Positions 4,067 to 59,467 of a stretch of 64,000 nt of DNA are shown here, piece after piece. The position numbers and the translations under genes were made by a program. Below the pieces are notes generated by a model that saw nothing but the letters and a program-made list of their open reading frames with translations, did no database searches and was not told the DNA's origin. Source of the stretch: Cetorhinus maximus (Eukaryota); the NCBI RefSeq assembly GCF_964194155.1, contig NC_135903.1, positions 29,326,001-29,390,000 on the forward strand, in the 5' to 3' direction. Numbering within the stretch: position 1 is the first letter of the stretch; the number at the start of each line of letters is the position of its first letter.

Positions 4067-4253
4067 CCTGCATTTTCGGTTGACTACAAAAAGCTTCTAT
4101 TTTTGAAGCAAGCATGGACATCATTTTAATATGTTAATCGGCTGTCTGTGACTTTATTTGGATGATGACAGAATTTCTTGCTTTGGACCATGGAGAGACA
4201 GTCTTTGTCAATGCTATCCTTCCAGGATGGTGATCTGGGCTCATAGATTCTCT

Positions 4254-10987: not shown

Positions 10988-11912
10988 CCACCTGAATAGG
11001 AATAAACCTGAAACTATGTCCTTGAAATTGGGTCATATTTAGATTGGTGCATGATTTCAGTGCAGCAGACGATGAATGAAGCTGGCAGAAGGACCACAGC
11101 AAATTATACCATCGGCCTTATTAGGATAGTACCGGCAAATTGCAGAGGTATAAGATCACCCACTGATATGTCACCGAGGGCCTAAGGTACGGCCGGATGA
11201 GGAGGGGGAGGAGCGGTGGCTTGCAATGTTAATAAGGAGCTGTTACAGATGCTACAAAACTCACACATTTGATGGGGAATTTAAAATATTTAAGTGTCAA
11301 TTGCAAATTAGCATTAATGGCAACTTGCCATAAAAATGGATAGAAATATGGCTGCTAAATTGACTTGTTGCCAATAAGTAGACTGTAAGCAAGACATCCT
11401 TCAAACTTTGTAAATTGGGAGGCAGCCAAATTAGCCGCCTGCATTTCCAGATTTTAAAGATGGTCCAAAGGTCACTCTCAGATAAGAAATATGTTTTTAG
11501 AAATATACAATAAACGATAGAAATCTTTTTGGCCGATGTTAAAATTTCTATTAAAAAGACACATGGTGAAGGACACATTTTAGTCAGCAGTCAGCCATCT
11601 TTCAGCCATCCTTGGGCAGAGGTTGAGTCCGAGCTTAGATCGGATTCCTGGGGCAGAATCATCCCAGATTTGCACGAAGTGCGGTAGCAGGCGGGAGAAA
11701 TGACGTTTTGCCCGCCAGCTGCAATGGTGGCAGCATTACCCCAATCCCACCACATTAATTATACATACCTGGGAAACATGCCATTTTGAAGGCGAGTGGA
11801 CAGTCATTCACCTGCCACACCATCATCTTGCCGCTACATCACGCCGGTCGCCATATTTAAAGTGCAGCCGCTCGCACACCTCTCATTGCTTCCAGCCAAC
11901 AACTGCTGAGAC

Positions 11913-13494: not shown

Positions 13495-14146
13495 CTCCCA
13501 AGAATGTCGCCCTGCCTATGGCTCCTTGTTCTGATGAGCAGTGTTCGTGTCACTAAGATGTGAAATCTTTCTGCACAAGATAAAGGGAGGTGTCTCAGTC
13601 CAGGGTTTCTTCCCTGTGCTTTGTGCAGCCTTCAGATACAATGTCCGACCTCACTCCCTGGACACATCACTCGTGCCTGCACCTCGACAGTGCTTGTCAT
13701 GGCTGCCAGAATGTTGTGGGCAGGCGCCACAGAGTTTCATCATTCTCTCAGTGTGCTCTCAGCACATTTATGATGGGGCTGGTCCCCATCTCTTCAGCAT
13801 CTGTGACCACTGATGCTGTGCTCCTGAAGGAGTCAGGTGCTGAAGGCTGACAAAGGATCAGGTGCTTTTAAAGTTTCATGGTGGTGTCTCCATGATATGA
13901 CCCTGGTCACAGAGCACAAGCGAGCTGCCCTCGGCCAAACAGGAGTCAGACATTCACAGAGGTTACGTGAAGATCTATGGAGTGTTCTCACTGCATGTCA
14001 TCATCATCCTCCTGGAATCGAGGGACTATTAGGGCCTCCACTGCATCTCCATGGCAGGAACCTTATCACAGAGGGTATATGCACTGCCATCAGCCAGACT
14101 GGAGTCAAACGTTCATAGGTGCAATGTGAGGATCTATGGTGTTTCC

Positions 14147-15371
14147 TCACTGCATGTTGTCATCATCATCCACAAATCTAGCAGCTATGAATTGCTCCTG
14201 AGAATTCCAGCCTTGTCTGGTCAGTGCGATGGCCTCATCACCATCACTGTCACCTTTGAGGACCTCCTCACCTCATCCCCGTTGACACCCTCCTCATCAG
14301 AGGAGACTGTCAGCTCCTCCATCTCTTCCTCAGCCGGCTCCTCTGCCCATTGCAGAGCCAGGTTGAAAAGGGCGCAGAAGATGATGACGATGCGTGACAC
14401 CCTCTGCGGACTGTATTGCAGGGCTCTACCAGACCGGTCCAGGCACCGGAACCTCATTTTCAGCATCCCAAAGGTTTGCTCCACCAAGTTGCGAGTTGCA
14501 GCAGGAACCTCATTATACCTTCGGTCTGCTGCTGTCTGAGGCCGCCGCGCGGGTGTCATCAACCATGTACTCTGCAGGTAGCCCTTGTCCCCAAGGAGCC
14601 AACCCTGCAGCCTTTGTGGACCTTGGAAGATGTCAGGGACCTGTGACCGACTGAGAATGTAGCAGTCATGGACACTTCCTGGAAACCAAGCCAGACCTGC
14701 AGGATGTGTTTGTGGTGGTTGCACACCAGCTGCATATTCAGCGAATGAAAGCCCTTGTGGTTGACATAGTTGACCGCTTGTTGCGAAAGAGATTTGAGTG
14801 CCATGTGAGTGCAGATGATGGCACCCTGCACCTGTGGGAAACCATATATCTAGGCAAATCCAACCACTCTTGCATCCTGGCTTTCCTGGTCTCGAGCGAA
14901 ATGCTCCAAGTTGTGTGCTCTCGCAAAGATGGCTTCCATGACAACATGCATGCGTTTGTGTGTGGGAGCTTGTGATATCCCGTAGAGGTCAACTGTGGAA
15001 CCCTGAAAGGAGCGTACAAATTGAGCGCCACTTTCATGGCCACAGGTAGTGGATGCCCTCCATGTCCCCATGGCGCCATACCCTGCAGCAGCTAGCAGAT
15101 GTGACCGACCAGTTCCCTGGACATGTGCAGTCTTCCGCAACACTGGTTCTCAGTCATCTACAGGAATGAAAGGCGACACCTATGGACCTTGGGTCTAGCT
15201 AGGTGCTGCCCAGCAATGGCTCTTCAGCATTGTGTGCGGGAATCCAGCCGCCTCTTCTTTCAGAGGGTGCTGCTCCTACCTCTGTGCAGCCGGGCACCTC
15301 AGTCGGTCTGTTCTCCATCGTCTCAGCTCTCTTTATACCACAAGACATACAGTTACCTCACCAGGCTCCAT
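14147..15371 (-). pseudogene. Harbinger (HARBI1-like, DDE_Tnp_4-type) transposase, disrupted
   Basis: Pieces in different frames: GSFQG..DLYGISQ, QGAI(I)CTH, KGFHSLNMQLVC, FPGSVHD, WLLGDKGY, RNLVEQTFGMLKMRFRCL and an acidic tail. ATG at 15371 follows a ttcatcctgcag acceptor. Frameshifts and stops present; first catalytic D lost. Confidence 0.92.
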
Positions 15372-17254
15372 GCTCCTGATATATTCTGCCTGCAGGATGA
15401 AAGAAAGAGATGCAATGGTAGCTTGGGCGTTCTAAGCACCTCTCTTGGTTAAGTCTGACAGCCCCTTAACACATCCCGGAAAGTGCTGGCCATCACTTGG
15501 ATGACCTGAGTTTAGTGCACTGAATGGCTGCCCAAATCCCCACCCACCTCCGCCCCACATCACCTGACCAATTGGCAGCAGCTTTTCCCAGTGGACTGCA
15601 TGTTGTGCTCTTAGCTCAGGTGCAGGCATTCTCCTAACCTACGCTGCAAGGCTGCACTGTTTGCTAGAACCATCAGGGAGACAGGTCCAAAGCAGAAAGA
15701 TGACTTTGCAAGGGGCTGTGAGCACCTCCACCAGAGCCTGCTCTATGATCAGCTTTCACAAGGAGATTATACAATGTGCCCAGTCATCCGACTGTTCCAC
15801 AGTCCACTAAAACGCTCATTAGTTTGCAATCTGTGCCCGAGGTGGGGAAAGCTCTGGAGCACTTGGTGGCACTTTGATGCCTCTGTGTTGCTTGTGTGGG
15901 CAGATAAGCTAGAGACCTGACTCCAAGCATGTCAATGTGGCTGCGTTTGAACTATCTCAGCTATACAGGAATGGTTACTTTATACGAGATTTCCCTAATG
16001 CATGGCCACTTCCCTCCCCCACACCCTGCACATGCTTGTGCGCTACCACAAACCACAGGGCAAACCTTGCCCCCCCCCCGCAACGCTCGCCTCAACCACA
16101 GGGGAGTTCTTGCCGTCCCCGCAACTCACCTCAACCGCAGGGCAGCCGTTGCCCCGCTCAACTTGCATCAACCTTGAAATCCAACAAGCCACCCTCATGA
16201 GCGCTGCGCACCGTTACCATGCACTCACCTCCGAGTTCCCCTCAAAGTGCAGCTCGCCAAGTCCATGCCTTATATATGCTGTTGTGAAACACGTTGGCAT
16301 AGTGCTCAGGGCGTACCAGCTTGGCGGGATAATTCCGTCGGTCTGGCCTTGTAATGATATGCAGATGCACTACAGTGAGGTTCCCAACATCCAAGGGCAG
16401 GAAACGCGGCCTGCCATTGACGGGCAGACGATTGCAAACTGGTTTCACGATTTTTGGCCTTCTCAGCATATTGCCCGCTCACGCTGTCCAGCGGGCATGG
16501 AAAATTCCGTCCCCTATCTTCTTGAGGCAAAGACCCTTCTAATTAAGCAATCATATTGGGTTCTGAGTATAATCTTTTGAAATCAATATTTGTTTGACTA
16601 TCCAACAACATTGCTGACTACACTGGATTCAAAAATTGCATGTATTTTAAAACGTTATTGGCATGTTATGATTAGCTTTAATTACCATCTATAATCCTTT
16701 TATATAAACTGTAATCTAGAATTGGTTTTAATTAAAAAAAAAATGTATTAATGAAGCCTACAAGGGGTTGTGGTCTCAAATCTATATTATCTCGAGGGCC
16801 CTCATAATCACACCACTCTCGGAATCTGAGTTAGACTTCTAAGGGCTGATGTTGGGGAATTCAACAATGATTCATTCTGCTATAACGTACCTCCATGTAA
16901 GTTCTGTCCTAAAATAACTTGGTTATATCAGAGACTCCTGGGGGAGAGGACTTTGTATTTGAGGACAGAGTGTAAGACTATGGGCAGAATCGTCCCAGAT
17001 TTGCACTAAGTGAGGTTGCAGGCAGGTAAAATGATGTTTTACCCCAGCCGCAATGGTGGCTTTTCACGCCGTATCGTCCCAAACCCACTGCATTAATTAT
17101 GCATTTCCCTGAAACATGCCGTTTGCACGGCGGGTGGGATGGTTCACCCTCCACACCATCACCTTGCCTCTTCATTACACCAGGCACAATATTTAAAGTG
17201 CAGCCGCACACGCACCTCTCAGAGTTTCCAGCTCACGACTGCTGCACAGAACAC

Positions 17255-18636
17255 ATGGCCCTGAAAGGCAAGAAGACTGCAGCCCCCACGTTCAATGACA
17301 CATCCCTAAAGCTCGTTTTGGATGCAGTGGAGGCTCACCGTGATGCCTTTTAACCCCGCTCTAGCTGCAGGATGGGCAGCCACATCGCTAATCTGGCTTG
17401 GGAGGTGGCAGCAGCGGTGGTCAGCGCCAATGCCCTGCAAAAGAGGACAGCCACCCAGTGCCGCTACAGGGTGAATAATCTCATCCGTTCCGCCAGGGTA
17501 ACTCACTCTTCTCATCACTCTCAACTCTCACACCCACAAATCGGTCACATGTCCATCAGGTTCTCACACCTCAAGGGACAACACCACTAACTCTCACACA
17601 CACCCTCACACCTCCACCAGGCTCATATCCTCTCGAGCACGCATCCTCATCCTNNNNNNNNNNNNNNNNNNNNNNNNNNNNNNNNNNNNNNNNNNNNNNN
17701 NNNNNNNNNNNNNNNNNNNNNNNNNNNNNNNNNNNNNNNNNNNNNNNNNNNNNNNNNNNNNNNNNNNNNNNNNNNNNNNNNNNNNNNNNNNNNNNNNNNN
17801 NNNNNNNNNNNNNNNNNNNNNNNNNNNNNNNNNNNNNNNNNNNNNNNNNNNNNACAGGGAGCTCTGCCAAGCGACTGACACCCTCAGCCAGCCAGTCCCT
17901 CAGCTCCATCCAGGTCCTCACCTCCAGCCAAGAGGACACCACCTCCACTGAAGAGCTGGAAATAAGCAGCCTGGATGACCCATCACAGCGCCTACCCACA
18001 CCCTGCACCAACACAGAGTCACACACCTCGGTGGGACCGAGTTTTAGAGCAGGTTCGGGTTCACAATCTAGTGGTCACCGCACGGACACATGTCCACAGC
18101 AGCAGGTGGAGGCAGGTTCGTGAGACCTCCCCGGCACTCGGAGGACTGCTGGGGAAGAGGCATCTGTGAGGTCCGAGTCAGATGACGAGCCTCCAGATTT
18201 GGCCTTCCAACTTATCCTGGGGAGTCAGCAGAAGGTGTGGGAACATCACGCAGAGCTGTTGGAAGCCCTCAACAGAGTGGCACGTGAGTTGGAGGAGTGC
18301 GTCCACCTGCTCTCTGATGAAGTGGTGCCCACATGTGCCTGTATGGAGGTCTCCATGGGGAGGATGGCAGACGCCATGGAGACCCTGGTCCAGCAGAACG
18401 CGGAGATGTGTTCAGACCTGCACTCCCTCACGGGAGCCATGGGTGAGTTCCTGCAGTGGCAACGTGAGAGGGAAATGGACACTTCGATGTCCCTCCAGGT
18501 GCTCCTTCCCCTCAAGGAGTCAGGCCGGGACTCCCAGGCACCTGAGGGGAGGAGGAGTGGCAGCTGGATACCCCTGGGTCATCCACTCAGGAATCTCAGA
18601 GGCTGTCCTCTCCCTCCGAGTCCCCTTTGCCTGTGA
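17255..18636 (+). pseudogene. Harbinger Myb/SANT-like gene of a sister subfamily, disrupted, spanning the assembly gap
   Basis: MALKGKKTAAPTFNDTSL...AWEVAAAVVSANALQKRTATQCRYRVNNL, donor CAGG|GTAAC; exon 3 acceptor ACAG|GGAGC at ~17857; helical C-terminal part SESDDEP...METLVQQ is homologous to copy A. Confidence 0.8.
17654..17853. other. Assembly gap (200 N)
   Basis: Run of N in the sequence. Confidence 0.99.
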
Positions 18637-19875: not shown

Positions 19876-20989
19876 ATTGTGAGAAGATCCTCAATAGTGA
19901 CTTTCCAACTTCTGTGGGTTGCTTTGCAGCAGAGCCATGTCTAGGAGAATTGACCCAGCGTGCCATGGGTTCCTCCAGTGTGCTGTTGGTGTCGGGCTCC
20001 AGCATCTTCTGCTCCTCGGATGTCTGTGATGTGGGCAAGGCCCTGGCGGTAAGTCCTGACTTCTGCGTGTTACACTTGTCAAGACATGCACTGGCTTGCC
20101 ATCACACCGATGTGGACGGACAATCCAGTGAGGTGGGGGATGAGTCCGGCAGGCTGGCCTTATAGTGATATGCAGATGTATTACATTGAGGTCCCCGACC
20201 TCCAACGGCAGGGAACGCGTCCCGCTATTGATGGGCTGAGCGGATGATCACAAACTGGTTTCACGATGTCATGAAACCAATTTCTGGCCTTCTCACCATA
20301 TTGCCCACATATGCCGCTGAGCACGCCCGATGCCAGCGGGCATGGACGATTCCGCCCTATGTTCCTTTACTACTTGGAAATTTCTTTCAGTTGAGATTCT
20401 AAGATAGCAATAAGTTCTAGGGAACAGGTTTAACTTGCCAGGGGTTAAAGATAGTAGAACCATTAACAGAGCTGAGGAAGGTCCTCCTGGTTCCATATAA
20501 AGGTTTGGAGCGGTTTCCATTCCTTAAGGACCATTGGGTAAGCTGCAAATAGACCTGCTCATCCTGAATTCAGCAGGGCCAAGCTAGGGCAAATCAATTC
20601 CTGATTTGGGCCCTAAAAGAAGCATAAAACCTCTTATATTTCAGGAGCCTAATGCCCAGTGTTAGTTGCTTTCAGGGGCTCCTCCATATTGACTGAACGA
20701 TTGTACCGTTTTGTTTAGCGCATGAGTGGTTTGTCCCATAAATTGAGCCGCTTTATATCCGTTTCTGAAAAATAGGCACAACAAATTCTAATTTCAGTCT
20801 GTCCATACTTCACAGACTGAACCCCATTGTGAAGAAACGTTTCTCAACTAAACTGAGTTATGTTACATCAGGATCCAAAATAAAGGATTATACTGTAGGC
20901 CAACAAAAGCTGTGCAAAATCATTATGATCTATATTCACAGCCAATTTGATTTAAGAGAATCTATCCCCTGCCAATAATGCACAAATTC

Positions 20990-25726: not shown

Positions 25727-28492
25727 AGACTAGTTGAGCAACAGCCTGACATAGTCATTCTCATGGAATTACAGATCATGCCCCAGACACCACCATCACC
25801 ATCCCTGGGTCTGTCCTGTCCCATTGGAAGGACAGACCCCGCAGAGGTGGTGGCACGGTGGTATACAGTTGGGATGGAGTTGCCCTCGAAGTCCTCAACA
25901 TCAACTCTGGACTCCAAGAATTCTCATAGCATCAAGTCAAACATGGGCAAGGAAGCCTCCTGCCGATCATGACATACCACCGCCCCGCCACCCTTAAACT
26001 GATGAATCAGTGCTCCTCCATGTTGAACACCACTTGGAGGAAGCACTGAGGGTGGCAAGGGCACAGAATGTACTCTGGGTGGGGGATTTCAATGTCCATC
26101 TCAAAGAATGTCTCAGTGGCACTAATACTGACCGAAATGGCTGAGTCCAAAAGGGCATACCTGCTAGACTGGGTCTCAGGCAGGTGATGAGGGAACCAAC
26201 AAGAAGGAAAAACATACTTGACCTCATCCTCTCCGATCTACCTGCCGCAGATGCATCTGTCGATGACAGTATCGGTCGGACTGACCACCGCACAGTTCCT
26301 GTAGAGATGAAGGTCCTTCTTCGCATTGAGGATACCCTCCATCATGTTGTGTGGCGCTACCACTGTGCTAAATAGAATAGATTTCGAACAGATCTAGCAA
26401 CTCAAAACTGGACATCCATGAGGCGCTGTGGGTCATCAGCAACCCCAGAATTGTACTCAAACACAATCTGTAACCTCATGGCCCAGAATGTCCCCCACTC
26501 CGCCATTACCATCAAGCCAAGGTATCAACCCTGGTTCAATGAAGAGCACAGGAGGGGTTGCCAGGAGCAGCACCAGACATACTTAAAAATGAGGTGTTGA
26601 CCTGATGAATCTATAACATAGGACTACTTGTGTGCCAAAAAGCCTACGAAACATGCAAGTGACAGAGCTAAGTGACCCTACAACCAATGGATCAGATCTA
26701 AGCTCCGCAGCCCTGCCACATCCAGCGGTAATGGTGGTGAACGACTAAACAACTAACTGGAGGAGGAGGCTCCACAAATATCCCCATCCTCCCAGCACAT
26801 TAGTGCAAAAGACAACCATCTTCAGCCAAAATTGCCAAGTAGATGATCCATCTCGCCCTCCTCCTGAGGTCCTCAGCATCACAGATGCCAGTCTTCAGCC
26901 AATTCGATTCACTCCACATGATATCAAGAAATGGCTGAAGGCACGGGATACTGCAAAGGCTATGGGCCATGACAACATTCCAGCAATGGTACTGAAGACT
27001 TAGGCTCCAGAACTAACCATGCCCCTAGCCAAGCTGTTCCAGGATGGCTACAACACTGGCATCTGCCGGCTATGTGGAAAATTGCTCAGGTATGTGCTGT
27101 CCACAAAAAGCAGATAAAATTCAACCCAGCCAATTACTGTCCCTCAGTCTACTCTTGTTCATTAGCAAAGCGATGAAATGTGTCATTAACAGATTGTCAC
27201 CTAACCAACAATAACGTGCTCACTGATGCTCAGTTTGGGTTCTGCTAGGCCTACTCAGTTCCTAACCTCATTACAGCCTTATTTTAAACATAGACAAATG
27301 ATCTGAACTCAAGAACTGAGATGAGTATGACTGCCCTTGACATTAAAGTTGCATTTGACCGAGTGTGGCATCAAGGAGCCCTAGCAAAACTGGAGTCAAT
27401 GCAAATCAGGGGGAAAACTCTCCGCTGGTTGGAGTCATACCTAACACAAAGGAAGATGGTTTTGGTTATTGAAGGTCAATCATCTTAGTCCCACAACATC
27501 ACTGCAGGAGTTCCCCAGGGTTGTGTCCTAAGTCCAACCATCTTCAGATGCTTTATCAATGACCTTTCCTCCATCATAAGGTCAGAGATGGGGATGTTTG
27601 CCGATGATTGCACAAGTTTCAGCACCATTTGTGTGTCCTCAGATACTGAAACAGTCCATGTCCATATGCAGCAAGACCTGGTCAATATTCAGGTTTGAGC
27701 TGATAAGTGGCAAGTAACATCCATGCCACACAAGTGCAGATAATGACCATCTTCAACAAGAGTGAATCTAAGCATCTCACCTTGACATTTAATATCATTG
27801 ATGAATCCCCCACTATCAGCATCTTGGGAGTTATCATTGACCAAAAAATGAACTTGAGCAGCCTTATAAGTACTGTGGTTACAAGAACAGGTCAGAGGCT
27901 GGGAATTCTGCAGTGAGTAGCTCACCACCTGACTCCCCAGAGCCTGTCCACCATCTAGATGGCACAAGTCAGGAGTGTGATGGAATACCCTCCACTTGCT
28001 TGGATGAGTGCAACTCCAACAACACTCAAGAAGCTCAACACCATCCAGGACAAAGTAGCCCACTTGATTGACACCCCATCCACTACAATAAACATTCACT
28101 CCCTCCACCATCAATGGTGCACAGTAGCAGCAGTGTGTGCCATCTACAAGATGCACTGCAGCAACTCACCAAAGCTCCTTTGACAGCGCCTTCCAAACAT
28201 GTGCTCTCTACCATCTAGAAGGACAAGGGCAGCAAACACATGGGAACACCACCACTGGCAATTTCCCTTCCAAGCCACTCACCATCCTGACTTGGAAATA
28301 TATCGCCGCTCCTTCACTGTCGCTGGATCAAAATCCTGGAACTCCCTCTCTAACAGCACTGTGGGTGTACCTACACCACATGGACTGCAGCGGTTCAAGA
28401 AGGCAGCTCACCACCATCTTCTCAAAGGCAACTAAGGATGGGCAACAAATGCTGGCCTAGCCAGCGATGCCCACAAGGATGAATAAAAAAAA
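25727..28492 (+). mobile_element. 5'-truncated APE+RT LINE (CR1/L2/Jockey group), decayed
   Basis: APE motifs QQPDIVIL.E, WVGDFNVH, EPTR..NILDLIL, DH; RT motifs AFDRVWH, GVPQG.VL.P, FADD; 3' tail GGATGGGCAACAAATGCTGGCCTAGCCAGCGATGCCCAC..GAAT plus poly(A). Colinear with 56805-59467. Confidence 0.92.
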
Positions 28493-29402: not shown

Positions 29403-29770
29403 TTTTTTTAATTATTCATTCATGGGGTGTGTAGGCGTCGCTGCCTGGGTCAGCGTTTATTGCCCATCCCTAACTGCCCTTGTTCAGAGGGCAGTTAAGA
29501 GTCAACCACATTACTGTGGGTCTGGAGTCACATGTAAGCCAGACCAGGTAAGGATGGCAGATTTCCTTCCCTAAAGGGCATTAATGAACCAGATGGGTTT
29601 TTACAATAATCGATAATGGTTTCATGGTCATCATTAGACTTTTAATTTCTGATTTCTTAATTGAATTCAAGTTCCACCATCTGATGTGGCAGGATTCGAA
29701 TCCGGGTCCCCAGAGCCTAGGTCTCTAAGTTATTAGTCCAGCGACAATACCACTATGCCATCGCCTCACC
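29403..29770 (-). mobile_element. Full-length tRNA-derived SINE, partner of the APE+RT LINE
   Basis: Reverse strand: box A TGGCATAGTGG, box B GATTCGAATCC, body AAAAACCCATCTGGTTC...GGAAGGAAATCTGCCATCCTTACC, tail AAGGGCAGTTAGGGATGGGCAATAAACGCTG...ATGAATGAAT plus A-rich end, shared with the LINE 3' end. Confidence 0.9.
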
Positions 29771-29888: not shown

Positions 29889-32668
29889 ACCCTAATGTCA
29901 GAGATTGTGTTGCGCTGTTTAGATAATGCACCTGCCACAGCTGAATAGCAACGAGAGGCATGTGTGGCATTGGCAGCATCAAAAGATGTTCAAGAGTGAG
30001 CTGGAGTATCTGGATGTTAGACATGGGTTCTGAGTGGCAGGGAGTGCTGCTGAGTGATTGATAGGTGTGTGGTGCGTTGAACAGCATGAGAGCTCGGTGG
30101 TGCAGTGGGAAGGAGATGGTCATGTAAAGATGCATTCACTGACATTGACCACTTGCATGAAGCCATTAGGTTTCTTGTGGTACTGTGGCCAAGTGCTCTG
30201 TTCCAGCCTCCAGGGATGACCTCCCTGGCTCCCTGCACCCACTCCTTAGTGAAGATAGTCCTGGAGGGCCTTCTGAGCCCTCAGAGGAACCATGGTACCT
30301 CTACACCTGCCCTCTTCTACTACTAATGCCTCCAGGATGACATCCATCACCCTGGAACTCTCTCTTTGACCAAGTGTTCACTTTGCCATCATTTAAATCA
30401 TTTAAAAAGCAGTAATATTCTTCCGTGTAGCTTCCCTTTTAAGAGAGACAGGCTGCCTTTAAGAAGAGCCACCTGGCTATTTCTGAGCCACGCTACTGGG
30501 TTCTTCTGCTGAGCGCAGAGGCAGCCAGCAGAGTTAGGAGGAAGACGACAGTGCAAGACCTGCTCGGCCAGATATTACAATCAAAGATGAAGTGGGTGCA
30601 CCAAATTTGCAAGCTGCCTACTTCCATCTGAACGGCCTCAGACAAGACGCAAAATGTGACCCAATTTCTAGACCCTAGTGTTGCGAGATTTGTTTCTTTT
30701 TATTGGTATATTGCTGTAAAAACTTTATTACATTTTTTAAACCTTATAACAAAGTAACTAAAAGGAACATTTTCTGGCTCCTTAACACTCAGTTGTTACT
30801 ACCTTAAAGAATTGTTCCACATAACTGTGCTTTCACTTTAAAAAGTGACTCAGAGAAGACGATCGATTACAATTTGGACAACAAGTCCATCTGATTACTG
30901 TAGACTTAAATGCATATGGTTCCCAAATTCTCTCTGTAATGTGGCGCAATTATAATAATATTACCCTTAATTTCTGAATCCTCTGAATTTTCAATATTTA
31001 GCACATTGAGACACACAAGACAATATTACATTACTATGTAAATGCCTGTAAAATGCAATGGTTATACTATTCTCCAGGCCATGTCGTTATCCAGATGATA
31101 TTCATTTTTTGACTGAAGCCCATTAGATCTAAATTACACGTAATGCAAAACTAATTCCATACATTTTTAATCAATATTTGTTTACCGGCACAGTTATATG
31201 AAACAATTCTTTAAGGTAGTAACAACTGCATTTGAGGGGAGGTTTTGAGTCAGGTTTTGAGAAGCACACAGTCATGATTCTTTTTAATTCTTCAAACTGA
31301 CAGCTCTGTTGCTAGAAACTTCTAATCATGGGATTTTATTTGGCCATTTGTGTTCAGCTCACCATCAACCACGTACAAATCTAATCAGATGGTTCCATGG
31401 TCACGGATAGCTACATAATTAACATCTGGATTTCAATTCTGTTTGGTTTATTACCTGAGCCATGATCTGATAGTCTATGCTCCCCTGCTGCTTAAAGAAG
31501 AGAAGGACATGATATATTTAATAAGCTGAGGTACAGTGACAAGAGTTTCTCTATTTGTCTCTCAGGTCACGCTACAATTAACTATTGAACAGGAGAAGGA
31601 ACATTGGCTCATAAGAGATGTGCGGTGCGTATACTTGTGTTGTCAGTGATGCTAAACGCAAGAAAATATTTTGTGTAAAAACCTAATTCTGGAACAGTGA
31701 TTAAAATCTTTTTGTCCTTTAATAGATCATCATTTAGGATTTTAAAAAATCATTTTCAGAATGCGCATTTAAGAATCATTTTGAAGGAGTCCATTCAATT
31801 AATTCAGTCTGTTCAGCCAGAGATTGACGTGTTTGGAAAGAAAACATGCTGCTCTGCACTCATGATTGATTTCTGCTATTAAGAGTTGCCTAAGGCACTT
31901 CAGACAAGGAGGGATCTCACCTTGATGTGATACAAAACAACTCCTGTATAGTACGTGGCACACGTTAAAAAGGCTGCAGCAACTACCCACACAACCCAAA
32001 TTCTGCCAAGATGATGCTTCTGTGGGAGTGACAGTCTCTCCATTAGCTGCGCCAATCTGACCATTTTAAATCCTTGCCAAATCGAGCCAATTAATTGACT
32101 GTACAATTAGACAAATTGTATGCATTTGTACTGGCCCAAAGAGATCCTGGGTGGAATTTTCCATGTCCTGGCGTTGGGCGTGTTCAGCAGCGTGAGTAAA
32201 CAATATGGCGAGAAGGCCGAGAATCAGTTTCACGACGTCGTGAAACCAGTTTGCAATCGTCCGCTCTGCCCGTCAATGGTGGGCCACATTCCCCAACATT
32301 GGATGTCGGGAACCTCATTGCAATGCATCTGCATATCTTTATAAGGCGAGCCCGTTGGAATCATCCCACCACACTGAGTTGTCCGAGCACGTCGGCGTGA
32401 TTTCACGCTGATGGGTTTTACAATAGCATACATAAGGCATGCACTTGGCGGGCTGCGCTTTGAGGGGAACTCGGAGGTGAGTGCACAGTAATGTTGCACA
32501 GCACTCGTGAGGGTCGCCTGTTGGACTTTAAGGTTGAGGCGTGTTGGACAGGAGAGGGGGCATGGGCTGCCCTGCAGTTGAAGTGACTTGGGGGTTGGGG
32601 GGAGGTGCAAGGGCTGACCTGCGGTTGAAGCTAGTGCACAAGAATGTGCAGGGTTGGTGGGGGGAGGA

Positions 32669-33680
32669 TTCCTGCAGATGACTGACAACCAGTGTCGCTG
32701 AAGACTGTGCATGTCTAGGGAACTGGTCGGTCGCATCTGCCAGCTACTACAGGATTTGGTGCCATGGGGACATGGAGGGCATCCCATGTCCATGAAAGTG
32801 ACCGCAGCGCTCGATTTTTATGCCAGTGGCTCCTTTCAGGGATCCATAGATGACCTCTGTGGGATATCACAAGTCTCCACCCACAAACGCAACCATGAGG
32901 TCACATGAGGGCACACAAATTTGTGCATTTCACCCGGGACCAGGAAAACCAGGATGAAGGAGCGATTGGATCTGCCCAGATCTCGGGTTTACAACAGGTG
33001 CAAGGTGCCATCGACTGCACTTACTTGGCGCTCAGATCTCCATTGCAACACATGGTCAACTATGTCAACTACAAGGGCTTCCATTCGCTGAACATGTGGC
33101 TGGTGTGCGACCACCATAAATGCATCCTGCAGGTCTGCACACCATTTCCACGGATTGTCCATGACTGCTACATTCTCATTCGGTCACAGATCCCTGATGT
33201 CTTTCAGGGTCCACAGAGGCTGCAGGGTTGGCTCCTCGGAGACAAGGGCTACCTGCAGAGGATGTAGCTGATGACACTCGTGCAACGGCCTCAGATTGCA
33301 GCAGAGCGAGGCTATAATGAAGCTCATGTTGCAACTTGCAACTTGGTGGCGCAAATCATTGGGATACTGAAAATGAGGCTCTGGTGCCTGGACCAGTCTG
33401 GTGGAGCCCTGCAATATAGTCCACAGAGGCTGTCATTCATTGTCATCGCCTGCTCCGCCCTTTACAACCTGGCACTGCAATGAGGAGAGGAGCTGGCTGA
33501 GGAGGAGATGGAAGAGCTGGAGGTCTCCTCCATTGAGGAGGACGTCAATGGGGATGACAGTGACAAGGTCCTCGAAGGCGATGATGACGGGAATGAGGCC
33601 CTCGCACTGGCTAGATGAGGCAGATGCACACAGGAGGGCCTCACAGCTGCAAGATTTGTGGACAATGAATGTAGTGGGGA
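32669..33680 (+). pseudogene. Harbinger DDE transposase, N-terminus deleted, disrupted
   Basis: ENQC..RL.MSRE-like start, ALDFYASGSFQG, QVQGAIDCT, KGFHSLN, LLGDKGY, LV(A)QIIGILKMRL.CL. Stops and frameshifts present; catalytic E lost. Confidence 0.92.
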
Positions 33681-33717
33681 GACTCCATAGATCCTCACAT
33701 TGCATCTATGAACGTTT

Positions 33718-34820
33718 TGAAGGGGTCTCAAAATTCCCACATTTTTCATATCAACAAGGATATGACTTTTGGACTTTTACCTGAAACCAGACAACAAGAG
33801 GATACAGAATACGCATTCTTCCCTTTAAAACAATCAACACGAAACTAAAGCCCATCAATATCTTGCATAAATAATTGCTACTTACTACGGGGGCAGGAAG
33901 ACCACAATCAATGTAATTATGCGAACCCATCAATACTCCACACATACAATGGCTTTCAGTTCAAGACTAGTTACGGGGGAGGAAGACAATGATAAACATC
34001 ATGCGGGCCCATTAAAAACAATGAGATATCAATCACCTAGGGAAGCCCACCAAAATCAAATAAAGAACTAACCTTGATTTGGATTGAGATAAGAAATTCG
34101 AAAAAAAACAGTATAACTGGGCCAGCAGATCAGGAGTGAGCAGTTTGTTTTTGGGCAGTGAGGAGTTTAAGCAGGGAGCTGAGCCAAGCAGAGGAAGGAG
34201 ATCTGGAGGTTTGCAGGCCCGCAGGCAACATCACGGCGAGGGGCACGGGGTGGCAGGCTCAACCGAAGACAACAAGGCCACAACCGCAGCCCTCCATGAA
34301 GATCGACCACCCACAACTGCGCCCTCCACCCAACTGAAGAACCCTCGCAGATTCCACATACCAGGATACCAGGACCACGTGGGGACGGCAGGCCCCAGAG
34401 GACACAAAGAGCATACCCCAAAACTGCAACCGGCTTACCCAGCTGGATTTCGAACTGTCAAGGAACCCTGGTTGGTGAGCATGATCCCTGACCTCTCCTA
34501 GTTCAATTTAGTTAGGTTTTGGGGGTGAGACAAAGGTAAGGGGATTAGTAGCGTGATTTTCCCTCATTATGCCGTGTGTTCCCCATTCTTAACTAAGTGT
34601 ACTTTGTAGGTCTGTATAATCTCAGTGTAATCCTAATGTTATAAATTCATTTGTGACTTCAATAAACTCAGTTATTATTTTCTTGCACCAAATCCAGTTG
34701 TCTGCTGCACTTTGTCACAACCCCCAAATAAGTCCAAGGTCTAGAACCCAGGGAGTGAGAGCAATTCGAACCGCTCGGAAGTCAGAGGTGGAGCTGACAC
34801 ACATACCACTACCCCCTACA
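33718..34820 (+). mobile_element. Solo LTR (1103 bp; ERV1/Gypsy-type 4-bp TSD)
   Basis: Termini TGAAGGGG...CCCCTACA; TSD GTTT / GTTG; the empty site GAACGTTTGACTCC is visible in copy A (reverse complement of 14101-14114). TATAA at 34112 and AATAAA at 34661. Confidence 0.88.
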
Positions 34821-36097
34821 GTTGGACTCCAGTCTGGCTGACATCAGCACACATACCCTCTGTAATAAGGCTGCTGCCATGGAGATGCAGCGGAGGCCCT
34901 AATAATCACTCGATTCCAGGAGGATGATGACGGCATGCAGTGAGGACACTACATAGATCTTCACATTGTCTCTGAGAATGTCTGAATCCTGCCTGGACAA
35001 GGGCAGCTCGGTTGTGCTCTGTGATCAGGGTCATATCATAGAGACGCAGCCATGAAACTTTAAAAGCACCTGACCCTTTGTCCACCTTCAGCACCCGACC
35101 CCTTCAGGAGCACAGCGTCACTGGTCACAGATGCTGAAGAGATGGGGGCCAGCCCCACCTCAAAGGTGCTGAGAGCACACAGAGAGAATGATGGAACTCT
35201 GTGATACCTGTCCACGACATTCTGGCAGCAATGACAAGCACCATTGACGTGCAGGCATCAGTAATGTTTCCAGGGAGTGTGAGGCCGGACCATCACTTTG
35301 GTCTGAAGGCTGCACAAAGCACAGGGAAGAGGCCCTGGACTGAGGCACCTGCCTTTATCTTGTGCAGGAAACAAGTTTTCACATCAGAGTGACACGAACA
35401 CTGCTTATAGATCAATGAGCCAAAGGCAGGAAGACATTCTTGAGAGTTAATTTACAATAGTGACCATTATGTACAAGTGATTAACATCTGTGCCCAGGCT
35501 GTGCAACTAATTATTCTTAACTTTTCTAACCCTGCCGCTATGTCGTGGCACTGCCCAGCCATCCACTGCAGAGGTAGAGGCAGCCTGCTGATTGTTGTAC
35601 GTGATGACCTTGGTGGGCATCCTCTGGAGGGCTAAGACCTGGAGGGCCCTGGCCTGTATTCAGGGTCCTGCTGTGTGGCAGTGGCACCCTCCTTGGCCTG
35701 TGGAGCTGGAGCTGCCGGGGTCACAGGAAGAGGCGATTCGGATGGGCTCGACTCTCCCGGAGTCACTTGGATGGATGGCCCGGGGTGTGCACTAGCTTAT
35801 CCTCCTCCTGATGGGTGCCCAAGGGCCCCGGGCCGACTCCTTGAGGAGAAGGGGAAGCTGGTGTGAGATTGAGCTGCCTTGCACCCCTCTTGCGTACAAA
35901 CTGTTGGAGGCCAACCATGGCATCAGCGATGCAGTTCAGCCTATGCTGCAGTGCAGGAACAATGTCCTGGACCAAGGTCTCCATGGTGGCCACCACCCTC
36001 AGTGTTGGCCTCAGTGCATTGGCATGCCGGCGCTATCACCTCAGCCTGAAGGCAGATAGACTCCTCCATCGTACCTTACAGTCTGAGGTGAGCAGCA

Positions 36098-36298
36098 ATG
36101 TCTTTTAAATCTCTTCAATTGAAATGGAGAGGGGTAGTCAATCAACACCTGGGAAGACCATTTATATTTTAAGTGACTCCCCGATATACATCCAGACATA
36201 TTTCACCTCATTTCTCTATTTCCTTAGTTCTGCTGAAGAGTCATACAGACTCGAAACATCAACTGTATTCCTCTCCGCAGATGCTGTCAGACCTGCTG
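36098..36298 (+). mobile_element. Penelope-like retroelement terminal fragment nested in the Myb-like gene
   Basis: Absent from copy A. Contains a hammerhead-like motif followed by CTCTCCGCAGATGCTGTCAGACCTGCTGA; related sequence lies on the minus strand at 46170-46285. Confidence 0.65.
36226..36264 (+). ncRNA. Degenerate minimal hammerhead ribozyme motif
   Basis: AGTT-CTG(C)TGA-A-GAGTC-ATACA-GACTC-GAAA-CATC-AACT: helix I AGTT/AACT, 5-bp helix II, core CUGANGA with one substitution, then GAAA. Confidence 0.6.
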
Positions 36299-38209
36299 AC
36301 ATCCCTTCCTAATGTTCCTGAGCTTGCCTTTGCACCTCCTGAGGTAACCCTGAGTCTAGAGCCTTATCATCTGACTCGGACTCAGCACCTTTCTGGCCTC
36401 CAGCAGTCCTTCGAGTGCCAGAGACCAGGGAAGTCCCTGCTGCCGCTTGCTGTGGATCAGAACGTGTGAAGTGCTCACCAGATTGTGATCCCGAGGCTAC
36501 TCTAAAGCTCGGTCCCACCGAGGTGTGTGTTTCTGTGCTGGTGGAGGATGTAGGTGAGCGCTGTGACGGGACTTCAAGGAGGATGCCTTCAGATTCTTCT
36601 TCAGAGGTTTCTTTGGGGCTTGACTGGAGGCTCTGGGTCGTGCACTCCGTCAGCTGTTTCCCAGATGTGCCTGCGAAAGCAAGGAGAGATAATTAGTGTA
36701 TGACAGTGGCCTGTGAACACATCACTCAAAGCATGGTGTCTGATGGATGTTGCACTGCTGGATCCTCCCTTGGTAGAGCAGCGCCGACCTCACCATCGGC
36801 ACAGGAATAGCCCAGATCCTCGTCGCCCAGCTGGATGGCTCTGTTTTCAAAGTCCATGAAGACCTTGATTTCAGGCATTCCTCCACCAGTCTGTGACCTC
36901 TCCCTCCTGTTGTGTGCCAGGTCGTCCTGCATAGAGATGAAGAGAGCGTAAGCTGCCAAACCAGATGATAAGTATGCCTGGCCTGTGGGGGTGGTGAGTG
37001 ACCCCCGTGAACGGGGTGAGGATACTGAAGGTGAGTGTGGGAGAGTGAACGGTGATGTCCCTTGAACTGGTAGTGAGCGAGGGCCCTGTGGATGTGTGAT
37101 GGGTTTGTGAGTGTGTGCGTTGAGAATAATGAGAAGGGTGACTTACCCTGGCGGAACAGATGAGATCATTTTTCCTTTTTCCGCACTGGGAGGCTGTCTT
37201 TTATGCAGGGCTTTGGCACTGACCAGTGCAGCCACCGCCTCCCAAGCTGGATTAGTGATGTTGCTGCCCATCCTGTGGCCGGAGTGGGGGTAGAGGATAT
37301 GGCGGGCCTCCACAGCATCCAAAAGATGCTCAAGGGACACGTCATTAAACCGAGGGCTGCAGTCTTCTTGCCTTTCAGAGCCATGTCTTCCATGCAGCAG
37401 TCGTGGACTGGAAGCACTGAGAGTTGCACGCATGGCTGCACTTTACATATGGCACATGGCATGGTGAAGCGGCGAGGTGATGGTGTGGCGGGTGAATGAG
37501 AACCCGCCTGTTATCGAACTGGCGTGTTTTCCAGGAATGCATAGTTAATGTGGGAGGATTGCGATGCTATGACATGACAAGCCTCCATTGCGGCCAGTGA
37601 GTAAAACATCGTTTTTCCCACCCGCTAATGCACTTAGTGCAAGTCTGGAATGATTCTGCCCTCTGTTTCAGGTAGAAAAATACCCATTACAATGGACTGT
37701 CTTGTTTACTTCTCTTTGGACTGTCATAATTGCATTCTAAATAAAATTAGCTGGATGGATTACAAAAAAAAAGATTTTCTGCATCTACGAGCTTACAAAA
37801 TCTATTTTGTATCAGAAAGAATTGTTTAACTTTACAACTGAAATATAATATTTAACAAGGGCATATCAGATGCCTGCAACATGCTGCCAACAGTATTATT
37901 GGGAAACACTGGCATATACACTAGGGCAAATATAGAATTTTCAGGAAATTATGGTTTCTGAAATGGCTAAGGTTACAATGGAGGCATCTTCCTCCTCATC
38001 AAATTTCAGAACAAGGACTGGGAGGCGTGCAGTCTGCAAACTACGCAAAGTTAATTTAGTGGAAAATAGTTAAGATTGAGGGAATTTTTCTTCAAGTTAT
38101 AAAAATGAACCGTGTGCTGTCAGGACCTTTGCCGATGCTGGAGACCCAGAGAATGTGCGATTAATTGCTCATTAATATTTCATAACAGCATTCACCACAT
38201 TGACGACCG

Positions 38210-38300
38210 TGCATGTCACCACCACCTCCTCAATGACAACCGGGTATGGGCAATAAATGCCAGCCTTGTTAATGACAGCCCCATCCCACGAATGAATTAC
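38210..38300 (+). mobile_element. 3' tail fragment of the APE+RT LINE family
   Basis: CACCACCACCTCCTCAA...ATGGGCAATAAATGCCAGCC...CATCCCACGAATGAAT. Confidence 0.7.
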
Positions 38301-40857: not shown

Positions 40858-41608
40858 TGGGCTTTGCTCAGCAAATTGATGGAGCTGCGGGCTGGCAAGT
40901 CTTCGGGTCCTGATGGATTACATCCTAGGGTCGTAAAAGAGGTGGCTAATGAGGTAGTCAATGTGCTGGCGTTAATTTTCCAAAATTCGCTAGATTCTGG
41001 AAAGGTTCCATCAGATTGGAAGGCAGCAAATATAACCCCTCTGTTCAAGAAGAGAGGGAGGCAGAAAACAGGAAACTATAGGCCAGTTAGCTTGATGTCT
41101 GTCGTGAGGAAGTTATTAGAATCACTCATTAAGGAGGATATAGCTGGGCATTTAGAAGAGCTCAAGGCAATAGGGAAGAATGAACATAGTTTTGTGAAAG
41201 GAAAATCATGTTTATCCAATTTATTGGAGTTTTTTGAAGGAGTAACTTGCACTGCGGATAAAGGGGAGCCTATAGACGTACTGTACTTGGATTTCCAGAA
41301 GGCATTTGATAAAGTGTCACATCAAAGATTATTACAGAAAGTAAAAGTGCATGGTGTAGTGGGTAACATATTAGCATGGATAGAAGATTGGCTGGCTGGC
41401 AGAAAGCAGTGAGTATGCATCAATAGGTCTTTTTCTGATGTGACAAGTGGAGTCCCACAGGGGTCTGTACTGGGGCCTCAACTTTTTACGATTTACATCA
41501 ATGGCTTAGATGAGGGGAGTGAAGACATGGTAGCTAAATTTGCAGATGACACAAAGATAGGGAGGAAAGTATGTTGTGAAGAGGACATGAGGAGGTTGCA
41601 GATGAATA
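40858..41608 (+). mobile_element. CR1 LINE reverse-transcriptase fragment
   Basis: KSSGPDGLHPRV, WKAANITPLFKK, NYRPVSL, YLDFQKAFDKV, SGVPQGSVLGP, KFADDTK; one stop. Confidence 0.93.
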
Positions 41609-51221: not shown

Positions 51222-53000
51222 TCCCCCACACTGTCTACCCGTCCAAACACTCTTTCCACCCTCTACACACTCTCCCCCCAACAACCTCCACACTCTATTC
51301 CCCCAACTGCCCCCACACTCTTTCCAAAAAACACCCCAAACTCTCCACCTCTCCCTCCGCCCCCACACACTCCCCCTCCCTCTCCAACCTCCACCCTCTC
51401 CCCCTCCCATCCCCACGCTCTCACCCTCCAACTCCCACACTTGCCCCCTCTGCCTCTACCCCCACACTCTCCCCCGCCCCCTCTACACCCGCAGTCTCCC
51501 CTACCCCTTTACCCCCATGCTCTCCCCCTCTACCCCTCTATCCCCACACTCTCTCCCCTATCCCACACTCTCCCCCACCCCCTCAATATTCCCCTCCACC
51601 CTCACACTCTCTCTCCCTCCACCCCCACACTCTCCCCCTCTCCCCTCCACCCCCGCACTCTCCCCCTCTTCCCTCCACCCCCAACACTCTCCCCTCCACC
51701 CCCCACACTCTCCCCCTCTCCCCTCCACCCCCACACTCTCCCCCTCTCTCCTCCATTCCCACACTCTCCCCTTCTTCCCTCCATCCCAACACTCTCCCCC
51801 CTCTCCTCCACTCCCCACCCTCTCCCCTCCCCTCCATTGCCACACTCTCCCCACTCTCTCCCCCTCAATATCCCCTCCACCCTCACACTCGCTCCCCCCA
51901 CACTCCCACACACTCCCCCTCACCCCTCCACCCCTCACACTCTCCCCCTCTCCCCTCCATTGCCACACTCTCCCCCTCTCCTCCCCACTCTCTCCCCCTC
52001 AATATCCCCTCCACCCTCACACTCTCTCTCCCTCCACCCCCACACTCTCCCCCTCTCCCCTCCACCCCCGCACTCTCCTCCTCTTCCCTCCACCCCCAAC
52101 ACTCTCCCCTCCACCCCCCACACTCTCTCCCTCTCCCCTCCACCCCCACACTCTCCCCCTCTCCCCTCCATTCCCACACTCTCCCCTTCTTCCCTCCACC
52201 CCAACACTCTCCCCTCTCTCCTCCACTCCCCACCCTCTCCCCTCCCCTCCATTGCCACTCTCTCCCCCTCTCCTCCCCGCTCTCTCCCCCTCAATATCCC
52301 CTCCACCCTCACACTCGCTCCCCCCACACTCCCACACACTCCCCCTCACCCCTCCACCCTTCACACTCTCCCCCTCTCCCCTCCATCTCCCACACTCTCC
52401 CCCTCTCCCCTCCATCCCTCACACCCTCCCCCCTCCCCTTCGCCCTCAAACTCTCCCCCACCCCTCCACCCCCACACTCTCCCCCTCCCCCTCCCACACT
52501 CTCCCGCTCACCCACAACCTCCCACACTCTCCCACTCCCCCTCCACCTCCCACACTCTCCCCTCCCCCTCCACCTCCCATAATTTCCCCATCCCCTCTAC
52601 CTCCCATACTCTCCCCATCCCCCTCTACACCCACATACCCCCTCAATATTCCCCTCCACCTTCACAGTTCTCCGACCATACTCCCCACACTCTCCTCCTC
52701 TCCCCTCCGCCCCTCACACTCTCCCCTTCTACTCCACCTCTCACACTCTGCCCGTCCACCACTCTCCTCCTCCAGCTCCCACACTCTCTCCTCCCCCTCC
52801 CACACTCTCCCCTCCCCCAACACTCTCCCCTACCCCTCCCATACTCTCCCCTCCAGCTCCCACACTGTCTCCCTCCCCCTTCAGCCCCGCACACTCTCAC
52901 CACAACCCCCCCGCACACTTCCCCTCCATACCCAACACCCCACACTCCCTCTCTCCGCCATCCTCACTCTCTCGCTCCTGCCCCCACACTCTCTCCCCTG
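51222..53000. repeat. C-rich minisatellite (CCCCACACTCTCCCCCT-like units) with a higher-order duplication
   Basis: The marker CCCCTCAATAT(T)CCCCTCCACC recurs at ~51579, 51861, 51995, 52287 and 52640; the + strand is almost devoid of G. Confidence 0.93.
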
Positions 53001-56364: not shown

Positions 56365-59300
56365 GGGGAGATGGTGGCAAAGTGTAAGATCACTGGACTA
56401 GAAATCCAGAGGCCCAGGCTAATGCTCTGGGGACATGAGTTCAAATCCTGGTGGAATTTAAATTCAATTCATAAATCTGGAATCAAAAGCTAATGATGAC
56501 CATGAAACATTGTTGATTACCGTAAAAACCCATCTGGTTCACTAATGCCCTTTAGGGAAGGAAATCTGCCATCCTTACCTGGTCTGGCTACACATGACTC
56601 CAGACCCACAGCAATGTGGTTGACTCTGAAATGGCCTAGCAAGCCACTCAGTTGTATCAAACCAGTAAAAAGTCTCAAAGGAATGAAAATGGATGGACCA
56701 CCCAGCATCGACCTAGGCAATGACACACCCAGCACTGTTGACCCTCCAAAGTCCTCCTTACTAACATCTAGGAACTTGTGCCTGGATGGGAGAGCTACCC
56801 ACAGACTAGTCAAGCAACAGGCTGATATAGTCACACTCACAGAATCATACCTTACAGTCAATGTCCCAGATATCACCATCCCTGGGTATGTCATGTCTCA
56901 CTGACAGGACAGACATATCAGAGGTGGTATACAGTCAGGGGGGATATGCCCTCTGAGTCCTCAACATTGACTCTAGACCTATGTAGTCCCATCAGGTCAA
57001 ACATGGGCAAGGAAACTTCTTACTGTTTACCTCCTACCATCCCCCCCTCAGCTGATGAATCAGTGCTCCTCCATGTTGAACACCATGGAGGAAGCACTGA
57101 GGGTGGAAAGGGTGCAGAGTGTACTCTGGGACTTCAATGTCCATCACAAAAAGTGGCTTGGTAGCACCACTACTGACCCATCTGGCTGACTCCTAAAGGA
57201 CACAGCTGCTAGACTGGGTCTTCAGCAGCTGGTGAAGAAAAAACCTACTTGTCCTCATCGTCACCAATCTACTTGTCGCAGATGCATCTGTCCATGACTG
57301 TATTGGTAGGAGTGACCACTGCACAGTCCTTGTGGAGATGAAGTCCCGTCTTCACATTGAGGATACTCACCATTGTGCTGTGGAGCACTACCAACGTGCT
57401 AAATGGGATAAGATTCTGAACAGATCTAGCAACTGAAAACTGGGTATCCATAAGGCGCTGTGGGCCATCAGCAGCAGCAGAATTGTGTAAACCACAACCT
57501 GTAATCTCATGGCCTGGCATATCTCCCACTCCACCATTACCACCAAGCCAGGGGATCAACCCTGGATCAATGAAGAGTGCAGGAGGGTATGCCAGGAGCA
57601 GCACCAAGCACACCTAAAAATGAGGTGTCAACCTGGTGAAGCCACAACACAGAGCTACTTGCATGCCAAACAGCAGAACTGCATGCAATAGACAGAGCTA
57701 AGCGATCCCACAATCAACAGATCAGATCTAAACTCTGCAGTCCTGCCACATCCAGCTGAGAATGGGTGTGGACAAGTAAACAATTCACTGGAGAATGAGG
57801 CTTTGCAAATATCCCCATCCTTAATGACGGATGAGTCCATCATATCAGTGCAAAAGATAAGGCTGAAGCATTTGCAATTACCTTCAGCCAGAAGTGTTGA
57901 GTGGATGATTCATCTCGGCCTCCTCCTGAGGTCCCCAGCATCACAGATGCCAGTCTTCAGCCAATTTGATTCACTCCAAGAATGGACCCTGAAAACATTC
58001 CAGCAAAAGTACTGAAGACTTGTGCTCCAGAACTAATGCCCCTAGTTAAACTGTTCCAGCTACAACACTGTCATCTACCGGCAATGTGGAAAATTGCCGA
58101 AGTATGTCCTGTCTACAAAAAGCAGGACAAATCCAACCCGGCCAATTACCGCCCCATCATTGTATTCCCAATCATCAGTAAAGTGATGGAAAGTGTCGTC
58201 GACAGTGCTTTCAAGCAACATTTACTCAGAAATAACCTGCTCACTGACGCTCAGTTTGGGTTCCTCTGGGGCTACTCAGCTCCTGACCTCATTACAGCCT
58301 TGGTCCAAACATGGACATAAGAGCTGAGTCAAGAGGTGAGAGTAAGTGCCCTTGACATAAAGGCAGCATTCAACTGAATGTGGCATCAAGGAACCTGGGC
58401 AACCCTGAAGTCAATGAAAATCGGGGGGAAAACTCTCTGCTGGTTGCAGTCATACCTAGCACAAAGGAAGATGATTGTGGGTTTTGGAGGTCAATCATCT
58501 CAGTCCCAGGACATCATTGTAGGTGTTCCTCAGGGTAGTGTCTTCGGCCCAACCATCTTCAGCTGCTCCCTCAATGACCTTCCCTCCATCATAAGGTCAG
58601 AAGTGGGGATGTTGCTGATGAGTGCACAATGTTCAGCACCATTCGCAACTCCTCAGATACTGAAGCAGCCCATGTCCAAATGCAGCAAGACCTGGACAAT
58701 ATCCAGGTTTGGGTTGACAAGTGGCAAGTAACATTCATGCCACACAAGTGCCAGGTAATGACCAACCCCAACAAGAGAGAACCAACACCTCTTGACATTC
58801 AATGGCATTACCATCGCTGAATCCCCTACTATCAACATCCTGGGGGTTACCATTGACCAGAAACTGAACTGGACCAGCCATATAAATACTGTGGCTATGA
58901 CAGCACATCAGATGCTGGGAATTCTGCAGAGTATAACTCACCTCCTGACTCCCTGAAGCCTGTCCACCATCTACAAGGCACAAATCAGGAGTGTGCCGGA
59001 ATACTCTCCACTTGTGTGATTGCAGCTCCACCAGCACTCAAGAAGCTTGACACCATCAAGAACCAAAGCAGCCGCTCGATGGGCACTCCATTCACCATCT
59101 TAAAAATTCACTCCCTCTACCACTGATGCACAGTGGCAGTAGTGTGTGCCATCTACAAGATCCACTGCAGCAACTCACCAAGGCTCCTTCAACAGCACCT
59201 TCGAACCTCTACCATTCAGAAGGACAAAAGTGGCAGATCCATGGGAACACCACCACCAGCAAGTTCCCCTCATGCTATACACCATCCTGTCTTTTTGAAA

Positions 59301-59467
59301 TATATTGGTGTTTCTTCATTGTCGCTGGATCAAAATCCCAGAATTCCCTTTCTAAGAGCACTGTGGGTGCATCTACACCACACGGACTGCAGCAGTTCAA
59401 GAAGGTGGCTCAGCAATCAGGGATGTAGGCCAGTGACACCCACATCCCATGCATAAATAAAAAAAAA
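56365..59467 (+). mobile_element. Apparently full-length APE+RT LINE with a tRNA/SINE-like 5' end and no ORF1, decayed
   Basis: Box A TGGCAAAGTG (~56375), box B GTTCAAATCC (56439), SINE-shared body to ~56630; APE from ~56745 (HRLVKQQ.DIV.LTESYL); RT (WKIA.VCPV.KK, NYRPI, GVPQGSVFGP); tail CCCACATCCCATG..AAT plus poly(A). Confidence 0.9.

Follow-up and report, generated by a model that had tools for sequence, protein, structure and literature searches.

LINEs are usually treated as coding elements transcribed by Pol II and SINEs as non-coding elements transcribed by Pol III, as set out in the accessible part of PMC5786205. The locus described here raises the question of whether a LINE can be transcribed in the manner of a SINE. 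Within the window (the whole 64,000-nucleotide stretch of Cetorhinus maximus DNA that was analysed), an earlier note had drawn attention to two LINE copies that are almost devoid of sense-strand runs of four or more T (T≥4), and had suggested selection for Pol III read-through of a coding RNA. If true, a very abundant shark and ray LINE would break the LINE/SINE polymerase split and stand as a naturally occurring long mRNA made by Pol III. Were that RNA also translated without cap or AUG from its SINE-type leader, the conserved SINE body would have a role in binding ribosomes, and one deletion in such a LINE would yield a SINE. Two questions would be opened to reporter assays, namely whether Pol III RNAs can be efficient vertebrate mRNAs and what role conserved SINE bodies play. 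The family has already been catalogued; what is new is a controlled statistic for the T-run loss and an account of how the start codon stands in different lineages.

The element at 56365..59467 on the plus strand is a degraded member of the elasmobranch Zenon LINE family, which is laid out as a tRNA-like head with A and B boxes, a 290-nt leader, one APE-RT ORF and a poly(A) tail. The head occupies 56365..56448, with the A-box at 56375-56385 and the B-box at 56438-56448, and we take it to be the head of SacSINE1. Both boxes are worn in this copy and exact in the family consensus, where they lie 64 nt apart and each fits a type-2 Pol III promoter box, as judged against the patterns that we take to be the type-2 box consensus. 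The remainder of the ~290-nt leader (56449..56630), common to the LINE and to a SINE considered below, is probably a Deu-type body. It is followed by ATG-GCC-TAG (56631..56639), in frame with the single decayed ORF at 56640..59417 (975 codons in the consensus, with no ORF1). The APE endonuclease begins at ~56760 and the reverse transcriptase (RT) spans ~57980-58870; natural family copies match PF14529 (APE) and PF00078 (RT), and the N-terminus of the ORF product is basic. The 3′ tail (59418..59467), also common to LINE and SINE, ends in poly(A) and is partly deleted here. A second plus-strand copy at 25727..28492 is 77% identical to the first when aligned and is 5′-truncated, lacking the first ~480 nt, such that only the copy at 56365-59467 bears a head. 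A lone 3′ tail of the same LINE/SINE family lies at 38216-38297.

The headed copy carries a T4 run at 58482..58485 and a T5 run at 59292..59296, and the headless copy has T4 runs at 27282 and 27460, all located as the earlier note had described them. The two-copy comparison on which that note relied is borderline alone, with 2 runs against 6.3 expected (P 0.04) and 2 against 5.4 (P 0.08) in base shuffles, and one of the two copies is headless. A family consensus was assembled from own-genome searches, in which the best 40 of 55,406 and the best 40 of 10,954 candidates were considered. Of 40 loci fetched, 29 near-complete ones were aligned with the two window copies to give a 31-copy consensus; the 11 partial loci were left out, and L002 was dropped as a duplicate of L100. 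The resulting consensus comprises 3,281 nt plus poly(A), with a short tail. According to the accessible text of PMC8466645, the shortest sequences that terminate vertebrate Pol III are TTTT and TVTTT, and the sense strand of the consensus contains neither T≥4 nor TVTTT, against 22 on the antisense strand, and only six TTT. All four runs in the window copies are absent at their sites in the consensus and are private, post-insertion mutations, and the claim that the ancestor lacked T≥4 over ~3 kb holds across the 3,281 nt.

No T≥4 run was present in a 100-copy consensus, nor in its young (12 copies) and remaining (76 copies) subsets. The raw consensus of the old subset (12 copies) has one T4, at a CpG-decay hotspot where TTTCG becomes TTTTG; this change is found in 10 of the 31 copies, also creates an in-frame stop, and marks the sole recurrent T4 site. 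Altogether 48 T≥4 runs fall within the 98,585 nt of the 31 copies, or 0.49 per kb, and some of these lie in DNA that flanks truncated copies; the window as a whole has 5.7 per kb. Among copies L061-L100 and L295-L324 the diagnostic sites are mixed rather than nested, which, as expected, fits many source elements or recombination.

The T content of the consensus is 20%. Against the absence of T≥4 in the ORF, 4.9 runs are expected with uniform synonymous codons (P 0.005), 3.7 under another null (P 0.013), 3.5 in a base shuffle (P 0.026), 2.1 in an own-codon shuffle (P 0.09), 1.2 in a dinucleotide shuffle (P 0.27) and 1.1 under a CpG-preserving null (P 0.28). With expectations this low (1.1-4.9), the loss of T≥4 was rejected as proof in itself: it does not carry the claim because it is not significant under the dinucleotide, own-codon and CpG-preserving nulls, although these strict nulls absorb part of the very bias under test. 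When TVTTT is counted with T≥4, none is observed against 4.4 in a synonymous shuffle (P 0.004), 3.3 under the CpG-preserving null (P 0.018) and 6.4 in a base shuffle (P 0.001). Runs of at least three T number 4, against 12.9 (synonymous), 10.2 (CpG-preserving) and 18.2 (base shuffle), with P≤0.0003 in all three, 9.3 in a dinucleotide shuffle (P 0.014), and 9.3-23.9 across all nulls with P≤0.014 in each. What reaches significance is the broader shortage of TTT and TVTTT, not that of T4 alone. Thus the depletion of T4 runs as such lies within what dinucleotide and codon usage predict (P 0.09-0.28), and it is T4 with TVTTT (P 0.001-0.018) and TTT that go beyond it.

The depletion concerns T alone and the sense strand alone. 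On its antisense strand the ORF carries 19 terminators, matching expectation, and in synonymous shuffles neither A, C and G runs nor pyrimidine tracts were depleted; AATAAA and ATTTA counts were too small to show anything. All four TTT in the ORF are Phe codons with non-T neighbours, and none spans a codon junction. Moreover, the TTA codon is never used in the consensus ORF, and Phe makes up 1.8% of it, the lowest value among 134 LINE ORFs. The TA dinucleotide is also low (0.64). Shared T-gains created TTT in 0 of 23 cases and rare T-gains in 152 of 1341, a weak test at about P 0.06. TTT itself is no terminator, and its strong loss exceeds the needs of strict terminator avoidance.

Consensuses of two CR1 families from the same genome, constructed in the same manner as that of Zenon, served as controls; a 4-copy CR1 cluster was too small to weigh. 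The first family has 14 T4 in 2,805 nt of ORF2 against 14.4 expected, with a mild T3 deficit (37 against 44, P 0.02), and the second (T 22.5%) has 8 T4 in 2,316 nt against 8.6 expected. The earlier note had contrasted the LINE copies with a CR1 RT fragment outside the element at 40858..41608 (+). The five runs counted there are present, but the piece is not a matched control, being decayed and more T-rich (5 against 2.7 expected); its family consensus has 14 T≥4, and the consensus-level controls agree with the contrast. A search of the same genome with PF09004 for Rex1/L2 controls gave no match and was uninformative.

An outside panel comprised 157 LINE ORFs from 160 public contigs, three contigs having no ORF of 250 codons; four distant RTs from viral contigs were left out of the control set. 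The observed-to-expected ratio for T3 is 0.31 in Zenon against at least 0.73 (median 0.97) in the 157 ORFs. None of the 74 panel ORFs of at least 2,400 nt is without T4, and the longest terminator-free stretch in the panel is 893 nt. In an RT tree built without named Zenon references, Zenon falls in a clade of single-ORF relatives adjoining the CR1 branch (FastTree 0.90-0.93). Three ORFs with DNA share this clade: L131, which has no recognisable head and 20 T4; L216, with 28 T4; and L215, of equal T content and with its 5′ end missing, which has a single T4 over 2,859 nt and avoids TT mildly, but holds 15 T3 and 4 TVTTT (5 terminators when its T4 is included). L215 is the result that speaks most against the Pol III read-through reading. 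T≥4 loss was also seen in L290 (ORF 3878-5911; 1 against 8.7 expected), L271 (4 against 11.4) and L254 (0 against 4.9), elements of other hosts with missing 5′ ends and no known head; their TTT is near-normal, as are the flanks of L290 and L271. The controls are CR1 families of the same genome or LINEs of other hosts, with no headless sister family from the same genome among them. Dozens of intact animal-type LINE ORFs, in the series L215-L294, came from contigs filed as bacterial or archaeal MAGs, most likely as host contamination.

The prediction that LINEs without the head would not show the depletion was borne out by the two CR1 families, the 157 outside ORFs and L131. In the available part of PMC13343379, the published headless hagfish and coelacanth Zenons have T4 runs within the first 400 nt when inspected by eye, and the seven headed elasmobranch ones have none. 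The T-run loss is real and specific to the Zenon family.

The head is likewise part of the element and forms the fixed 5′ end of the family. Among 30 copies picked with a foreign protein, 17 have their start no more than 6 nt from one common first G and the others begin further in; upstream of this G no family-wide common sequence was found in the 30 copies. ARAGORN and Rfam made no tRNA call on the head, ARAGORN found no tRNA in 37 of 80 metagenome loci, and the A/B-box pattern upstream of the 157 control ORFs gave one chance-like match, in L156. The SINE at 29404..29770, on the minus strand, combines the LINE's first 290 nt with its last 77 nt, the junction lying immediately ahead of the ATG. 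Over 30 copies, the SINE and LINE consensuses are 97% identical in the first part and 95% in the second. The SINE is the same RNA with its middle removed. Of the traits of a SINE2, the element at 56365..59467 has the A/B-box head at its 5′ end; it is neither short nor non-coding (3.3 kb with a 975-codon ORF).

The Zenon LINE tail carries AATAAA and poly(A), as in Pol II transcripts, and this counts against the Pol III reading. A T-run just before the A tail is present in 26 of 94 LINE tails and 4 of 25 SINE tails, and could give some copies a Pol III stop of their own. These runs were not counted as evidence for a built-in terminator, since T-run growth at short A tails is known to follow insertion; the available text of PMC8466645 describes such growth at the start of short A tails in T+ SINEs (B2, Dip and Ves). 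Contigs of presumed RNA runs and of one DNA-like run (organisms A-F) cover the element and are uninformative on strand, start and polymerase; one X17 contig bridges the leader and the ORF start.

The Zenon ORF has been kept under purifying selection. Variants shared by at least 12% of copies have an N/S of 28/42 (0.67), against 3330/1076 (3.1) for rare variants, and the low value for shared variants indicates that the source elements were translated. The consensus leader contains 10 upstream AUGs, and the only in-frame upstream AUG lies at its end in good context. At codon 3, counting this AUG as the first, 32 of 48 copies have TAG, 6 CAG, 3 GAG and 7 another codon; codon 9 reads TAA in 29 of 66 copies. 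Most lineages thus meet one stop or two within nine codons of the AUG. The same TAG of ATG-GCC-TAG stands, by eye, in six of the seven published elasmobranch Zenon consensuses in the accessible material of PMC13343379. The youngest subset (12 copies, 3.6% from its own consensus) is open from AUG to stop. Since the AUG is mostly closed and the in-frame Met that follows it comes only after the endonuclease, most lineages depend on a non-AUG start or on help in trans.

Two other ways of starting the ORF were considered. A −1 frameshift from an out-of-frame AUG near consensus position 421 was rejected, as no canonical slippery site was seen by eye and the basic N-terminus, common to relatives, lies in the main frame. 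Read-through of TAG-CAA as a general start is weakened because many copies have a further stop at codon 9. A pseudoknot or tRNA mimic was also considered at the ORF start, where several short stems could form. Work cited in the available part of PMC5703244 holds Pol III able to make functional mRNA.

Selection for Pol III read-through, by whichever route the protein is made, appears to be the best explanation of the T-run loss, with a probability of about three in four. What speaks for this proposal of the earlier note is the T- and strand-specific depletion, the exact boxes and the purifying selection, not the T4 runs alone, which stay within the strict nulls. That low T content (20%) and codon usage suffice by chance is very improbable: the strictest nulls do expect only 1.1-2.1 T≥4, but the losses of T4 with TVTTT and of T3 remain significant with protein, codon usage and junction CpG held fixed, and L215, at equal T content, has its 5 terminators and 15 T3. 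It is also distinctly unlikely that the element is a Pol II unit throughout, with a captured SINE serving as its 5′ UTR and with U-runs shunned on account of RNA processing, decay, U-rich RNA sensing or an RT mutational bias. LINEs are regarded as Pol II transcription units (the available sections of PMC5786205), AATAAA and poly(A) stand at the 3′ end, L215 has a milder TT avoidance, TA is low too, and the TTT loss reaches past true terminators. Against this, pyrimidine tracts are undepleted, the effect is absent from the 157 outside ORFs and both CR1 families of the same genome, and the boxes are exact in a consensus whose full-length copies start at the tRNA-like +1.

Within the read-through reading, labour may be split, with Pol III making only the copied 3.3-kb template, in effect a giant SINE-like RNA, and the protein coming from capped Pol II transcripts, either of host read-through across a copy or of a minority of open-AUG copies. 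This would account for the T-run loss without cap-independent translation, and both the stops close to the AUG in most lineages and the open frame of the youngest subset are in its favour. We nevertheless consider it unlikely: purifying selection would be maintained more readily by a copied RNA that encodes its own protein, the TAG seen by eye at codon 3 of six of the seven published consensuses (PMC13343379, available portion) speaks for closed-AUG lineages being the usual, long-lived form, and a capped RNA would still meet the 10 upstream AUGs. The chances are about even that the source elements, with their intact tRNA-type promoter and no sense-strand Pol III stops, made one Pol III RNA that also served as mRNA; the closed AUG (codon 3 mostly TAG, codon 9 often TAA) counts against this mRNA role. 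The fuller proposal of an autonomous retrotransposon with a Pol III-made 3.3-kb coding RNA, cap- and AUG-free translation and a SINE-type leader acting as the ribosome entry site is tentative and rather doubtful.

If one Pol III RNA does serve both ends, Pol III would start at the first G of the head, read through the whole 3.3-kb RNA and terminate in a T-run at or beyond the tail. T-runs would likely be shunned because an internal one would end the RNA before the 3′ tail on which copying depends. Probably the same RNA would serve as mRNA too; its translation would need no cap, and initiation, guided by the leader, would in most lineages dispense with an in-frame AUG. The protein product would then copy its own RNA.

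Several known systems resemble the element in part. The elasmobranch Zenon LINEs of Stuart et al. (2026; PMC13343379, seen in part), namely CarCar, HypSab, RhiTyp, ScyCan Zenon-1 and SquAca Zenon-1/-2/-3, are likewise about 3.3 kb with a single APE-RT ORF, no ORF1 and poly(A). Compared by eye over their first 400 nt rather than aligned at full length, they share the head, leader, ATG-GCC-TAG and ORF start, and two short window motifs each match six rows of the available supplement of that paper. In the portions available, its main text contains neither ‘tRNA’ nor ‘polymerase III’ and its supplement does not contain ‘tRNA’, and the head, terminator loss and closed AUG are undiscussed.

SacSINE1 and other Deu-type tRNA SINEs of cartilaginous fish (Luchetti et al., 2017; PMC5499810, in part) also have a tRNA head, a conserved body, a LINE-shared tail and a Pol III-type promoter; however, what SacSINE1 has in common with its LINE, L2-2_CM, is the 3′ tail alone, whereas here the LINE itself bears head and body. 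The Persaeus SIDE, like the SINE here, is a short partner made from both ends of a Zenon LINE, that of Lepidoptera, but according to the accessible text of PMC6740152 it lacks both tRNA homology and a Pol III promoter. RTE-1_DAn and related elements (Kojima, 2018) are LINEs that contain a tRNA-like sequence, yet they belong to the RTE clade, and the available part of that paper (PMC5786205) gives no position, function or Pol III claim for it. The T+ SINEs B2, Dip and Ves are Pol III RNAs with AATAAA, poly(A) and tail T-runs, as here; unlike Zenon, they are short and non-coding and have a fixed terminator in the consensus, which the Zenon consensus lacks (PMC8466645, in part). Literature searches, with subscription journals and Repbase notes outside their coverage, returned no report of Pol III transcription of Zenon or of any LINE.

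Two inverted, decayed copies of a DNA transposon occupy 11651-15167 and 32238-37661 of the window, with shorter pieces of the same transposon at 16086-18197 and 20101-20364. From their motifs, we take the frames of the two longer copies to be a Harbinger-like transposase and a Myb-like protein. A C-rich tandem array with extreme GC skew is found at 51224-52999.
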